Sequence record: OZ035759.1 | Reading direction: 5' to 3' (one strand) | Length of the DNA: 64,000 bases | Source of the DNA: Mosigvirus mar005p1 | Part shown: positions 28,957-33,038 of the stretch, piece after piece | How the letters are laid out: each line of letters begins with the position of its first letter | How positions within the stretch are numbered: the stretch's first letter is position 1 | Translations under genes and position numbers: made by a program | The notes under the pieces: model-generated | Database searches by the model: none | The model's input: the letters and a program-made list of their open reading frames with translations, nothing else | What the model was told of the DNA's origin: nothing

Positions 28957-28981
28957 ATAATACCATACTATTCGTAAAGCA
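28957..28981 (-). promoter_or_regulatory. T4 middle promoter (MotA box plus -10) upstream of gene 31
   Basis: Minus-sense taTGCTTTA, 12 bp, TATTAT. Confidence 0.5.
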
Positions 28982-28983
28982 TA

Positions 28984-29292
28984 TTACATAAGAAGCAAAC
29001 GTTCTACCGGAGTACCATCAACCGAAATTACTTTATCAAGGCGGAAAGAACGCCACTGACCTAACTCGGTATCGAATGCTCGAACTGATTCACGAGGTTC
29101 AGAACGAACTTCTGTTGCTGGATTTCTATTTTCATATTTGACTTCAAGTTCATCACGGGAGGCAAACATCGTACGAACATCACCGTTAGCCTTTTCAAAT
29201 ACAACACAATGAACGCCTACAGACAGAATAGTTTTAATACGTTCACGAAGAACCATAGTTTCTTGTTCAGTTAAAATCATATTATTCACCAC
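28984..29292 (-). CDS. hypothetical protein
   Basis: 102 aa; overlaps cd stop. Confidence 0.45.
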   Translation of the reverse strand: MVNNMILTEQETMVLRERIKTILSVGVHCVVFEKANGDVRTMFASRDELEVKYENRNPATEVRSEPRESVRAFDTELGQWRSFRLDKVISVDGTPVERLLLM

Positions 29293-29863
29293 AAAAGTTT
29301 CGAATTTGTTCCCAATTCAGAGAACGAAGATTATTACGAGAGTACTGAATTACTTCAATACCAGCTTGTTTAAGAATGTCTGTCCAATTTTCAGGAGACC
29401 GGTCATATAATTCTGCATATACAACCTTTTTAATGCCTGACTGTGTGATAGCTTTAGTGCAATCAGGACACGGAGAAAGCGTAGTATATAACGTAGCACC
29501 TTCAATAGAATTACCTTTACGAGCAGCAAACAAAATTGCATTCAATTCCGCATGGATTTCGTTATTAGCAGACCATGCACTATGAGCGGCCCGATGTTCT
29601 TTAGCCAAAACAAAATTATCTGCCCGTCCAAATGCTGTAGTGCCTTCTTTATGCCCAGCAACGATGACCGGGCTTGGTTTATTCTTCAACCAACCTTGTT
29701 CGGTAGCATGGTCACAACAGTTTGTACCACCTGAAGGAGACCCATTATAACCCGTAGAGATAATGCGCCCATCTTTTTCAATGACGGCACCAACTTTCCA
29801 TGAACAACATTTTGATTCTTGAGAAATCAGATATGCAATCTGAAGGTATGTGCTAGCTTTCAT
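29282..29863 (-). CDS. cd: dCMP deaminase
   Basis: 193 aa (T4 Cd 193 aa); cytidine/dCMP deaminase zinc motifs HAELNAI and PCPDC. Confidence 0.9.
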   Translation of the reverse strand: MKASTYLQIAYLISQESKCCSWKVGAVIEKDGRIISTGYNGSPSGGTNCCDHATEQGWLKNKPSPVIVAGHKEGTTAFGRADNFVLAKEHRAAHSAWSANNEIHAELNAILFAARKGNSIEGATLYTTLSPCPDCTKAITQSGIKKVVYAELYDRSPENWTDILKQAGIEVIQYSRNNLRSLNWEQIRNFCGE

Positions 29864-30855
29864 TATTGAACCTTATTAATATAAGTTAACAGCTCTTTAG
29901 TTTGTTCCCAACTGATGCACGCATCGGTAACGGAAACGCCATAGGACATATTATCAGAAATTTTTTGATTTCCTTCATGTAGGAATGATTCTATCATAAT
30001 TCCTTTGACCAAATCATTAGCTGCTAAATTTTTACCAATACCAATTTGATTGCTATAATGCCCAGCAGCGTTTGCATGGCTACAGTCAACCATTACATAA
30101 TGATTCAGACCTACTGCACTTGCTTTGTTAGAAGCTTCTTGAATATCAGAAGAATGATAGTTCGGGCCGTTGGTCCCGCCACGCAATACGATATGCGTAT
30201 TCTGATTACCTTCAGCTTCAACAATGCCTACAGTACCATCGACGTCCATACCCATATACCGATGAGGCCAGGCGGCACTATACATCGCGTCTGTAGCTAC
30301 TTTAATAGAACCATTGGTTGCGTTCTTGAAGCCTACGCACATCGGTAGACCTGAAGCAATTTCACGATGTGTCTGACTTTCAGTCGTACGGGCGCCAATA
30401 GCAACCCATGAGAAAATACCAGAAAGATACTTAATCGTGAATGGGTCTAATACTTCAGTTGCTAATGGAAGTCCCATACGTAGAAGTTTACGACACAATG
30501 TTCGTGCAACTATAAGACCGTGGTTCATATCAAAACTTCCGTCAAGATATGGATCATTTACAAGACCTTTCCAACCTACGGTAGTTCGAGGCTTTTCAAA
30601 ATAAACGCGCATCACTAACAGAACATTAGGAAGACGAGTTTGAAGTTCAGCCAGACGTTTGCCGTATTCAACAGCAGCAATAGGGTCATGAATTGAACAA
30701 GGACCTACAACAATAAGTTTGCGTGGGTCTTCACCGTTCATAATCGAATTAACTTGTTCGCGATGAGAAGCCACTTGTGATGCGTAAGCTTCCGACAAAG
30801 GAATAATCTCAGCCAGTTCTTTTGGAGAAATAAGTTTTCCGACGACAGGTAACAT
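29863..30855 (-). CDS. 3-deoxy-D-arabino-heptulosonate 7-phosphate (DAHP) synthase, class I (AroG/AroF/AroH-like)
   Basis: 330 aa; conserved blocks LIVVGPCSIHDP, VMRVYFEKPRTTVGWKGL, AIGARTTESQTHRE, IVLRGG, DCSHAN, ESFLHEGNQ; stop overlaps cd ATG (TAATG). Confidence 0.85.
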   Translation of the reverse strand: MLPVVGKLISPKELAEIIPLSEAYASQVASHREQVNSIMNGEDPRKLIVVGPCSIHDPIAAVEYGKRLAELQTRLPNVLLVMRVYFEKPRTTVGWKGLVNDPYLDGSFDMNHGLIVARTLCRKLLRMGLPLATEVLDPFTIKYLSGIFSWVAIGARTTESQTHREIASGLPMCVGFKNATNGSIKVATDAMYSAAWPHRYMGMDVDGTVGIVEAEGNQNTHIVLRGGTNGPNYHSSDIQEASNKASAVGLNHYVMVDCSHANAAGHYSNQIGIGKNLAANDLVKGIMIESFLHEGNQKISDNMSYGVSVTDACISWEQTKELLTYINKVQ

Positions 30856-30975
30856 AACAATCCTTAGGAGATATAAACAGATTCTGATTCAACAATACCT
30901 TTAACCGGATTAGACAGGCTAAGTTGGTAGTGCTCAGATTTATGACCATTCTCGATAGTAATGAGATAGCTCTCA

Positions 30976-31212
30976 TTATAGTGTTCCATATACTCGAGTT
31001 GCTTCAACTAAACCGTCACTGCCTAATTTAAGGCTAGTAATCTGGTCACCATCTTTAGGATTAACGATTATGAGAAAAGAACGTGGAGATTCTTGAATAA
31101 CTCGTAATGTTGCATCCTGGAAACGTTCAGACACTTTATTGATGAGTGCTTGAGCAAATTCTTTTACTTTAATCTGAAATTCGTGTACTGTAATTGGATT
31201 TTCACTTAGCAT
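30976..31212 (-). CDS. hypothetical protein
   Basis: 78 aa; first gene after an early promoter, upstream of the DAHP synthase gene. Confidence 0.45.
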   Translation of the reverse strand: MLSENPITVHEFQIKVKEFAQALINKVSERFQDATLRVIQESPRSFLIIVNPKDGDQITSLKLGSDGLVEATRVYGTL

Positions 31213-31240: not shown

Positions 31241-31270
31241 ATAGTATCACAACTCCACCATGTTGTAAAC
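31241..31270 (-). promoter_or_regulatory. T4 early-type promoter
   Basis: Minus-sense GTTTAC, 18 bp, TGaTACTAT; flanked by imperfect inverted repeat GGTAGAGTT / AACTCCACC. Confidence 0.45.
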
Positions 31271-31555: not shown

Positions 31556-31780
31556 TCAGTGTACAGTATTTACTTTAACTCGAACAACAAATCGCTCGGT
31601 CGGTTCACCTACAGGAACAAACTCTACATGATATTCACCTTTGTAACGAGTATTCAGATCATTACGAATTCCTGCGAGTTTGTTGATTAATGTAGGACTC
31701 ATATTAAGTCCCACTAGTTTACGAAGCATTTTGTATGCTTCATCTTCGATTTCATGATGTTTATCGTACATAGTTTTCAT
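31556..31780 (-). CDS. hypothetical protein
   Basis: 74 aa ORF. Confidence 0.45.
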   Translation of the reverse strand: MKTMYDKHHEIEDEAYKMLRKLVGLNMSPTLINKLAGIRNDLNTRYKGEYHVEFVPVGEPTERFVVRVKVNTVH

Positions 31781-31951
31781 TTAACCATTCAATTGCTTGG
31801 TCGACGTTATCAAATATACCACCGTCCAAACGTTCTTCATGCTCATAGTCCAGCACATCAATACCGAACTGTCCATTTACTAAAGGCCAGGCTACAAACA
31901 AATATTCTTTATGCTGTTCGATGGCCTCAATCACTTCATATAATCGTTTCA

Positions 31952-31952
<1 letters not shown>
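31761..31952 (-). CDS. hypothetical protein
   Basis: 63 aa; start overlaps pseT stop. Confidence 0.4.

Positions 31953-33038
<1,086 letters not shown>

Follow-up and report, generated by a model that had tools for sequence, protein, structure and literature searches.

Mosigvirus mar005p1 (sequence record OZ035759.1) carries, between cd and pseT, a gene for a DAHP synthase, and the reading that we favour, and hold to be reasonably likely as a whole, is that its product is a catalytically competent, AroF-derived phage enzyme that is expressed early and is insensitive to Tyr, Phe and Trp. DAHP synthase joins PEP and erythrose-4-phosphate (E4P) to form DAHP and so opens the shikimate pathway. The presence of this synthase in phages has already been catalogued, and the possible value of the present analysis lies in the regulatory signature of the enzyme, the residues of its inhibitor site being replaced throughout the phage clade. 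The window, by which is meant the whole stretch of 64,000 nucleotides that was analysed, is that of a Mosigvirus (RB69-like) phage.

Gene and locus

The gene and its surroundings comprise the following features:

29863..30855, minus strand: DAHP synthase coding sequence with ATG start, 330 aa, type I-alpha, AroF-like lineage (from the ORF, family profiles and predicted structure)
29282..29863, minus strand: cd (dCMP deaminase), whose start codon shares TAATG with the synthase stop
30856..30976, minus strand: spacer of 120 nt that separates cd.2 from the synthase; its stretch 30976-30961 repeats, in degenerate form, the region of the cd start codon
30861..30865, minus strand: Shine-Dalgarno-like AAGGA, 5 nt 5' of the synthase ATG, as read from the sequence
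31952-32851: pseT, separated from the synthase by four small ORFs

Both the location between cd and pseT and the TAATG overlap agree with the original prediction, whose seven motif blocks are all found in the ORF translation; the overlap had been taken as a sign of coupling to cd, and translational coupling of the two genes is indeed probable. The spacer opens (30976-30961) with ATGAGAGCTATCTCAT, to be compared with ATGAAAGCTAGCACAT at the cd start, and in LR027386, a Mosigvirus without the synthase, the stop codon of cd.2 directly overlaps the ATG of cd. Upstream of the synthase ATG an in-frame TGA is read at 30891-30889 with no start codon between the two, so the short N-terminus of the protein (see below) is real. 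As had been proposed from its AT-rich third codon positions, the gene resembles its phage neighbours: its GC3 of 0.293 is that of the phage background (0.287 +/- 0.045 for the long ORFs of the window) and not that of E. coli aroF/G/H (0.50-0.57, with aroF at 0.50).

Family, fold and catalytic residues

Judged by its sequence, the gene product is a type I-alpha (AroF/G/H-type) metal-dependent DAHP synthase, in keeping with the class I identity first assigned to it. Pfam PF00793 gives a single match, over residues 36-323 (E 7e-75, 251.8 bits against a cutoff of 25.5), and the NCBIfam aroFGH equivalog TIGR00034 scores 427 bits against a cutoff of 173.2. Among the NCBIfam isozyme and subfamily models scored, only the generically named PRK12755 lies above its cutoff (455 bits versus 343), the AroG equivalog NF006723 reaching 364 bits against 568 and the AroH equivalog NF009396 385 bits against 463. 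Identity is 51% to AroF, 47% to AroG and 44% to AroH of E. coli, and the best solved relative is also E. coli AroF (6agm, 353 bits). The AF2 model of the protein (pLDDT 94.9) is a (beta/alpha)8 barrel with an inserted beta6a/6b hairpin (strands 198-203 and 209-214), an architecture shared with the Phe-sensitive AroG and N. meningitidis DAH7PS (1kfl, 1gg1, 8e0u, 4hsn; TM 0.96, rmsd 1.3 A).

Alignment to E. coli AroG, AroF and AroH, mapped column by column, places the catalytic residues as follows:

29923..30699, minus strand: span of the catalytic residues
30699-30697, minus strand: metal ligand Cys53 (AroG Cys61)
30078-30076, minus strand: metal ligand His260 (AroG His268)
29991-29989, minus strand: metal ligand Glu289 (AroG Glu302)
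29925-29923, minus strand: metal ligand Asp311 (AroG Asp326)

All four metal ligands are thus intact, and the ten PEP/E4P residues (AroG R92, K97, P98, R99, T100, G163, A164, R165, K186 and R234, which include the KPRT motif) are all kept, as phage Arg83, Lys88-Pro-Arg-Thr91, Gly154-Ala-Arg156, Lys177 and Arg225. The metal ligands, together with R92, K97, R99, R165, K186 and R234, show no variation across the ~120 homologues tabulated. With these residues in place, the synthase is predicted to be catalytically competent. The type I-alpha fold, metal ligands, PEP/E4P residues and KPRT are also those of the Tyr-sensitive E. coli AroF (6agm/6agl), with which the phage enzyme further shares a Gly aligned with AroG residue 211 and a Pro aligned with AroF residue 148; it is 26 residues shorter than AroF, lacking 9 residues at the N-terminus and 9 at the C-terminus, and carrying internal deletions of 5 and 3 residues.

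Distribution and origin

The novelty of the gene had been overrated. Proteins 99-100% identical are annotated in many GenBank/RefSeq phage records as DAHP synthase or phospho-2-dehydro-3-deoxyheptonate aldolase (for instance the Straboviridae entry Shf125875 YP_009100756, which is the same gene at the same locus), and the protein matches PHROG 5045, whose category is auxiliary metabolic gene, with E 9e-182 (residues 1-330 on profile positions 8-337 of 341). The existence of the gene is therefore already known, both from PHROG 5045 and from 212 phage records with a homologue, which they usually annotate as such; the Mosigvirus and Straboviridae database records give the name alone and are silent on regulation. 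The gene is not universal: 894 phage records have the neighbouring cd.3, against the 212 with the synthase. T4 and RB69 are without it, as are ~11 of 150 close Mosigvirus records, and the T4 slot is taken by cd.1, much as the original prediction had it. The slot between cd.2 and cd is occupied by the synthase in Mosigvirus, Kanagawavirus, Marfavirus, Winklervirus, Bragavirus and a metagenomic T4-like contig. The full-text literature searched yielded no functional work on DAHP synthases of phages. Its sole mention of one is a paragraph in which the synthase of a Klebsiella Kanagawavirus is called an auxiliary metabolic gene (PMC11845039); two recent Mosigvirus genome papers leave the synthase unmentioned.

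NJ bootstraps recover the phage clade as monophyletic in 30/30 cases, and its members lie on phage contigs only; among 8000 proteins scored, no cellular one exceeds 55% identity. This low identity and the phage codon usage rule out a recent capture from the host and bear out the old, integrated acquisition that had been suggested. P0118/P0108, the NJ sister of the clade, has a bacterial context, but with a distance-based tree and a biased sample it was not relied on to identify the donor. The synthase is under purifying selection, with dN/dS of 0.14-0.20 between genera, a ratio that is uninformative within Mosigvirus, where divergence inside the gene is only ~0.4%.

These observations bear on the idea that the gene is a passenger without a role in infection, or that it encodes an aldolase of other specificity, such as a KDO8P synthase. 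The gene is dispensable, being absent from the phages named above, and the PF00793 family is one that we take to include KDO8P synthases as well; nevertheless, the idea is most improbable in view of the dN/dS values and the invariance of the tabulated catalytic residues, of an ORF that is full-length in 212/212 records (each with at least 80% of the query covered), of an aroFGH equivalog score far over its cutoff, of the E4P-binding KPRT and metal-binding Cys, and of a single locus held across at least five genera.

The inhibitor site

The region that distinguishes the phage enzymes is the following:

30214..30435, minus strand: remodelled allosteric-site segment, containing Ile141, Lys142, Gly146, Ile147, Pro171, Tyr200 and Ala214

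In an unbiased scan of 350 alignment columns, only 7 tell the phage clade and the cellular enzymes apart. In AroG numbering these are P150I, Q151K, D155G, L156I, S180P, F209Y and T223A, which correspond in order to the phage residues listed above, and all seven fall inside the inhibitor-site segments 144-156, 175-181 and 202-223; read against AroF, the changes include P151 to Ile, Q152 to Lys, D156 to Gly, S181 to Pro and F210 to Tyr. Four of the seven columns are exact published feedback-resistance or inhibitor-contact positions (hypergeometric P ~1e-5). AroG P150L has full resistance to Phe, and S180F and F209A/S also confer resistance; the main chain of the inhibitor is bound by Q151/Q152 and S180/S181 in AroG and AroF, and D155 makes a stabilising salt bridge, although equivalent substitutions may act differently between isozymes (PMC9529685). 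The residues introduced in the phage differ from the published ones, with Ile in place of Leu at 150, Pro in place of Phe at 180 and Tyr in place of Ala or Ser at 209.

Within the phage clade the seven replaced residues are invariant or nearly so: Lys142, Pro171, Ile141 and Tyr200 are shared by 23-24 of the 24 members scored, whereas 95-96 of 98 cellular relatives keep Q151 and S180. The signature is present in 25/25 clade members, P0020 and P0022 carrying minor variants of it, and in 10/10 T4-like IMG/VR loci; it was not found in ~95 cellular homologues, save for a partial variant in P0118, nor in ~55 other viral-contig homologues. A general viral feature is ruled out, since the canonical residues persist in the homologues on giant-virus MAG and other IMG/VR contigs classed as viral. 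These proteins, and that of Aeromonas phage HJ05, are type I-alpha as well, but just 35-53% identical to the phage synthase, and the IMG/VR copies have, with few exceptions, P150, Q151, D155, S180 and F209 along with a full-length N-terminus; they are unrelated acquisitions or, possibly, cellular contamination. Other elements of the site are kept in the phage synthase, namely the regulatory beta-hairpin, D146, the AroF-type Pro at 147, L179 and the Tyr-type Gly211. The pocket-lining positions (AroG 144, 146-151, 155, 175, 176, 179-181, 202, 207, 209 and 211) show little or no variation in a clade that is 57-99% identical overall and has 34% of its columns invariant. Pocket residues that are frozen in this way, with no drift, would also suit a functional ligand site of new specificity.

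The N-terminal arm

30826..30855, minus strand: shortened N-terminus MLPVVGKLIS..., without the first 8-9 residues of AroG/AroF

AroG Ile10 and phage Leu2 share an alignment column, which confirms the deficit of about 8 residues noted in the original prediction: the phage N-terminus is 8 residues shorter than that of AroG and 9 shorter than that of AroF, and AroG residues 1-8, Asp6 and Asp7 included, have no phage counterpart. The number of residues before AroG position 20 is 9-13 in all clade members, versus 17-54 in cellular enzymes. In the AF2 model residues 1-10 are coil and do not form a full N-terminal extension, which is partly retained as helices 11-17 and 22-39. This extension is a component of the allosteric machinery in type I-alpha enzymes; together with the beta-hairpin it supplies the Phe site, and the inhibitor pocket is located in the tight-dimer interface (PMC4735112).

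Since the pocket is rewritten and the N-terminal arm shortened, the phage synthase is probably insensitive to Tyr, Phe and Trp. Insensitivity had originally been proposed from the truncation, and the clade-wide substitutions of inhibitor contacts now provide stronger evidence for it than the truncation alone. According to this reading, an AroF-like (Tyr-type) ancestor would have given rise to a lineage carried on T4-like phage contigs only, in which the inhibitor pocket, lying in the tight-dimer interface, has been rewritten and the arm that closes it clipped. Zhang et al. reportedly altered the N-terminal element in 2014 to abolish DAHP synthase inhibition. Engineered or selected feedback-resistant enzymes (AroG P150L, S180F, F209A and D146N, and N-terminal-domain variants) are altered at the same positions 150, 151, 180 and 209 and in the N-terminal element (PMC9529685); unlike these, the phage changes are natural, multiple and fixed clade-wide, they introduce other residues, and their effect is a predicted one.

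An ordinary Tyr-regulated AroF-type synthase, of which the phage would merely supply more and in which the substitutions would be neutral or structural, would account for the proximity to AroF in identity and in solved structure, for the PRK12755 score and for the retained Gly211, D146, Pro147, L179 and hairpin. It is nonetheless unlikely, because the inhibitor-binding Q151 and S180 are Lys and Pro across the clade, P150, whose replacement by Leu fully abolishes inhibition of AroG, is Ile, the arm is truncated, and neutral drift would not place 7/7 discriminating columns in the allosteric segments.

We regard it as similarly unlikely that the pocket has been re-specified for another effector (a nucleotide-pool or phage-specific metabolite, say), with allostery kept under a new signal. 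The near-invariance of the pocket positions in so varied a clade does suggest constraint on the site, not decay, the change from Gln to Lys adds a new charge beside a retained hairpin, and the neighbours are nucleotide-metabolism genes (cd, with td, frd and nrd close by in T4-like genomes). However, as the pocket lies in the tight-dimer interface, subunit packing alone can explain its conservation; a candidate ligand is indicated by none of the results, and losing the N-terminal arm takes away part of the site and does not reshape it. A low but appreciable likelihood attaches to a natural, ancient, de- or re-regulated subtype, whose pocket (I150, K151, G155, I156, P180, Y209 and A223, with the clipped arm) was rewritten and then frozen, and which would either sense a non-aromatic, infection-specific effector or act as an unregulated E4P/PEP sink towards pentose phosphates and nucleotides.

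Expression and neighbouring ORFs

31241..31269, minus strand: sigma-70/early-promoter-like TTTACA-17-TACTAT, TG-extended, between cd.3 and cd.2 (9/12 match)

This site is a candidate promoter for cd.2-DAHPS-cd, and the T4 record annotates an early promoter at the equivalent place, between cd.2 and cd.3. A sigma-70 scan of the region returned 14 sites versus 14.3 expected from shuffles, with no enrichment, and the assignment thus draws on the analogy with T4. A dedicated synthase promoter was rejected, the 120-nt spacer containing no sigma-70-like or MotA-box-like site. The synthase is probably cotranscribed with cd.2 and cd, in what we infer to be the early/middle period.

The small ORFs upstream are cd.2 (DUF7320), cd.3 (DUF7355), RB69ORF227c and cd.4, all of which belong to PHROGs of unknown function. 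It had been suggested that they are co-expressed partners of the synthase; co-transcription is likely, but specific partnership is ruled out, because these are ordinary genes that occur in T4, RB69 or both, and hence in phages without the synthase.

Role in infection

In the favoured reading of an insensitive enzyme, the synthase would be transcribed within the early/middle cd.2-DAHPS-cd run and coupled in translation to cd, and because of this timing and coupling, together with insensitivity, entry to chorismate synthesis could be held open once host gene expression stops. The phage might benefit through aromatic amino acids or chorismate-derived cofactors, or through a sink for E4P and PEP.

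Transketolase converts F6P and G3P to E4P and Xu5P, and from this textbook stoichiometry it may be reasoned that an unregulated E4P/PEP sink would pull the non-oxidative pentose-phosphate reactions towards pentose phosphates for nucleotides. As the purpose of the gene this is very unlikely, even though deregulation would suit such a sink and the synthase is coupled to dCMP deaminase, within a block of nucleotide and nucleic-acid metabolism, in every genus examined: PEP is a costly co-substrate, the window examined holds no other pentose-phosphate genes, and the position may just mark a tolerated insertion in a variable region (occupied by cd.1 in T4 and elsewhere by homing endonucleases and small ORFs). 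The sink purpose is compatible with the mechanism of the favoured reading.

Should that reading, of a competent and feedback-insensitive synthase, be true, T4-like enterobacterial phages would carry a naturally deregulated gatekeeper of the shikimate pathway. This would be a clear case in which a virus overrides the host's control of metabolism through the removal of allostery, beyond the addition of an enzyme, and would offer a ready-made, evolution-tested DAHP synthase for engineering the production of aromatic compounds. The patchy spread of the gene, which most Mosigvirus genomes carry and RB69 and T4 lack, supplies natural plus/minus pairs for its contribution to a lytic coliphage.

A DAHP synthase gene overlapping cd

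Between cd.2 and cd, translation of the window reveals the following gene:

29863-30855, minus strand: DAHP synthase ORF, 330 codons, ATG start

The original prediction had described here a DAHP synthase gene whose stop overlaps the cd start, and it was right on both counts; all of the motif blocks that it quoted are present in the translation. The N-terminus cannot be longer, since an in-frame TGA (30891-30889) lies upstream of the ATG with no start codon in between, and AAGGA is found 5 nt upstream of this ATG. The synthase stop and the ATG of the downstream dCMP deaminase gene (cd, Pfam PF00383) overlap as TAATG, an arrangement that probably couples the two genes in translation. On the upstream side, four small ORFs separate the synthase from the polynucleotide kinase gene pseT, which starts with GTG in the window. 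Homologues of RB69ORF227c and cd.4 (31556-31780 and 31761-31952, minus strand) overlap each other by 20 nt and belong to PHROGs 3609 and 2360 (function unknown), and neither ORF has a Pfam match.

The synthase probably belongs to a run of same-strand genes expressed at early/middle times. At 31269-31241, a promoter-like site occupies a position matching an annotated T4 early promoter. The window contains 15 copies of the MotA-box-like middle-promoter pattern TGCTTNA-N11-13-TANNNT, versus 3.9 expected from shuffles, for example at:

28957-28981, minus strand: MotA-box-like site before gene 31
32235-32259, minus strand: MotA-box-like site inside pseT

The whole-window scan detected no such pattern directly upstream of the synthase.

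Family, catalytic residues and fold

Membership in the class I family, for which a profile search and alignment to AroG, AroF and AroH had been proposed, is confirmed by both. The protein matches Pfam DAHP_synth_1 (E 7e-75), the NCBIfam aroFGH equivalog TIGR00034 (427 bits, cutoff 173) and subfamily PRK12755 (455 bits, cutoff 343), and scores below the cutoffs of both the AroG- and AroH-specific NCBIfam models. Its best solved relative is the Tyr-sensitive AroF of E. coli (6agm, 353 bits), and identity amounts to 51% with K-12 AroF, 47% with AroG and 44% with AroH. All four metal ligands (AroG C61, H268, E302 and D326) are kept, as phage C53, H260, E289 and D311, and R92, K97-P-R-T100, G163-A-R165, K186 and R234 (AroG numbering) are all present. 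An AlphaFold2 model built from a 36-sequence alignment (mean pLDDT 94.9) can be overlaid on E. coli AroG and on N. meningitidis DAH7PS with a TM score of 0.96 and an rmsd of 1.3 A, and it retains the beta6a/6b regulatory hairpin. Judged by sequence and modelled fold, the phage protein is a competent DAHP synthase of type I-alpha, and that it catalyzes the reaction is very probable.

A rewritten inhibitor site

In type I-alpha enzymes the inhibitor site lies at the tight-dimer interface, and is built by an N-terminal extension together with a beta-hairpin (PMC4735112). In E. coli AroG, Phe inhibition is lost in D146N and P150L, and resistance is also seen with S180F, L175D, L179A, F209A/S and V221A; the main chain of the inhibitor is bound by Q151 (AroF Q152) and S180 (AroF S181), and D155 forms a stabilising salt bridge, with the caution that equivalent changes may act differently in different isozymes (PMC9529685). 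The phage protein carries Ile 150, Lys 151, Gly 155, Pro 180 and Tyr 209 (AroG numbering), and lacks anything equivalent to AroG residues 1-8. The same pattern and truncation are seen across the 25 members of the T4-like phage clade, with minor variants in two basal ones (Pro150 in P0022, Arg151 in P0020), whereas P, Q, D, S and F are retained at these positions by 89-96 of 98 cellular relatives. The phage residues at resistance positions differ from those of the laboratory AroG variants.

When 350 alignment columns were scanned for those in which at least 90% of the clade shares one residue and at least 85% of cellular enzymes another, seven passed (150, 151, 155, 156, 180, 209 and 223), all within segments 144-156, 175-181 and 202-223. 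Four are the very positions published for resistance or inhibitor contact (hypergeometric P ~1e-5, in a post hoc test). About 55 other homologues on IMG/VR contigs, many of these named as giant-virus MAGs, lack the signature; in some 35 such loci with GVMAG in the contig name (L032-L083), the type I-alpha homologues are 40-47% identical, and every one keeps the canonical inhibitor-site residues and a full N-terminus. P0022, encoded on metagenomic T4-like contigs away from cd (L014 2517-3515, L015 2010-3008), keeps Pro150 and already has Lys151, Pro180 and Tyr209; this may mark an intermediate stage in the evolution of the remodelled pocket.

Most pocket positions are invariant within the clade, versus 34% of all columns, a freezing that could equally reflect dimer packing or the binding of a new ligand. 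The best-supported mechanism on these comparisons is a DAHP synthase whose rewritten site would leave it free of aromatic amino-acid feedback. The feedback insensitivity raised in the original prediction thus gains support from the clade-wide substitutions and the missing residues 1-8. Catalysis is very likely and the predicted deregulation likely, and the two together make a reasonably probable reading. The phage could gain aromatic amino acids, chorismate-derived cofactors (folate, quinones) or an E4P/PEP sink favouring pentose phosphates. As far as searches show, clade-wide rewriting of this allosteric site is undescribed, and it is directly testable.

Distribution and age of the gene

Of 50,697 phage records searched by tblastn, 212 carry a synthase homologue.

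Synthase homologues in phage records
Records; identity; phages
139 of 212; at least 95%; Mosigvirus
47 of 212; 60-80%; phages of Klebsiella, Enterobacter, Edwardsiella, Serratia and Erwinia, and EcS1
26 of 212; below 60%; Proteus, then Acinetobacter, Aeromonas HJ05 and gut contigs

The neighbouring cd.3 is found in 894 records, so that roughly a fifth of the phages sharing the locus have the synthase, which is widespread among them, not universal. In T4, cd.1 sits in the slot; in RB69, cd.2 abuts cd; and the gene is missing from a few closely related Mosigvirus genomes, vB_Eco_mar005P1 among them.

Many of the 212 records already name the gene DAHP synthase, AroF or AroG, and PHROG 5045 ('moron, auxiliary metabolic gene and host takeover') gives a full-length match to it (E 9e-182). 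In Shigella phage Shf125875 (Mosigvirus), where the region is collinear at ~97.5% DNA identity, it is called phospho-2-dehydro-3-deoxyheptonate aldolase. The novelty originally claimed was therefore overstated; apart from this and the small ORFs, whose proposed role as synthase partners found no support, that interpretation was mostly right. Full-text literature searches returned no functional study of a phage DAHP synthase, the only mention found being a paragraph on one Kanagawavirus of Klebsiella (PMC11845039). Cluster P0001 (99% identical) is named '3-deoxy-7-phosphoheptulonate synthase [Escherichia coli]' at NCBI, and its longest contig is phage-genome-sized (170,875 bp); it is probably phage sequence deposited under the host name.

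The slot is constant, with pseT and cd.2 upstream, cd downstream and at times an additional small ORF or two, in Mosigvirus, Kanagawavirus (PEi26), Marfavirus (PhiKpNIH-6), Winklervirus (X20), Bragavirus (PM2) and a metagenomic T4-like contig. Of 8000 homologues scored, the best ~24 (57-99% identity, 319-343 aa) either bear phage names or come from contigs whose size or content is that of a phage, and the next-ranked are cellular (at most 55%, 341-388 aa). This short clade was monophyletic in 30 of 30 neighbour-joining bootstraps; both basal members checked lie on T4-like contigs, and the nearest outgroup is located among bacterial genes. The proposed codon-usage comparison gave a GC3 of 0.293, like the window's long ORFs (0.287 +/- 0.045, versus 0.50-0.57 in E. 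coli aroF/G/H), with a mid-distribution rank for synonymous codon usage, and dN/dS between genera is 0.14-0.20, with synonymous sites saturated. Slot, monophyly, composition and dN/dS therefore identify an old, phage-adapted gene under selection, and recent capture is ruled out.

Outside this clade, Aeromonas phage HJ05 (OQ594355; 79 kb, not T4-like) encodes a 38% identical homologue (L010 2899-4062), annotated only as a hypothetical protein and probably an independent acquisition.

A candidate insertion scar

In Mosigvirus, a 120-nt spacer (30856-30975, minus strand) separates cd.2 from the synthase, whereas in genomes of the genus without the synthase the cd.2 stop directly overlaps the cd ATG. 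Right after the cd.2 stop, ATGAGAGCTATCTCAT (30961-30976, minus strand) repeats in degenerate form the cd start found at 29863, ATGAAAGCTAGCACAT, and looks like a scar left by recombination when a ~1.1-kb cassette was inserted. The pseT-cd interval is variable: T4 has cd.1 and cd.5, Serratia phage X20 has one extra ORF between synthase and cd (L008 3498-3839), and in Proteus phage PM2 a homing endonuclease is present along with two additional small ORFs (L009 1106-1822).
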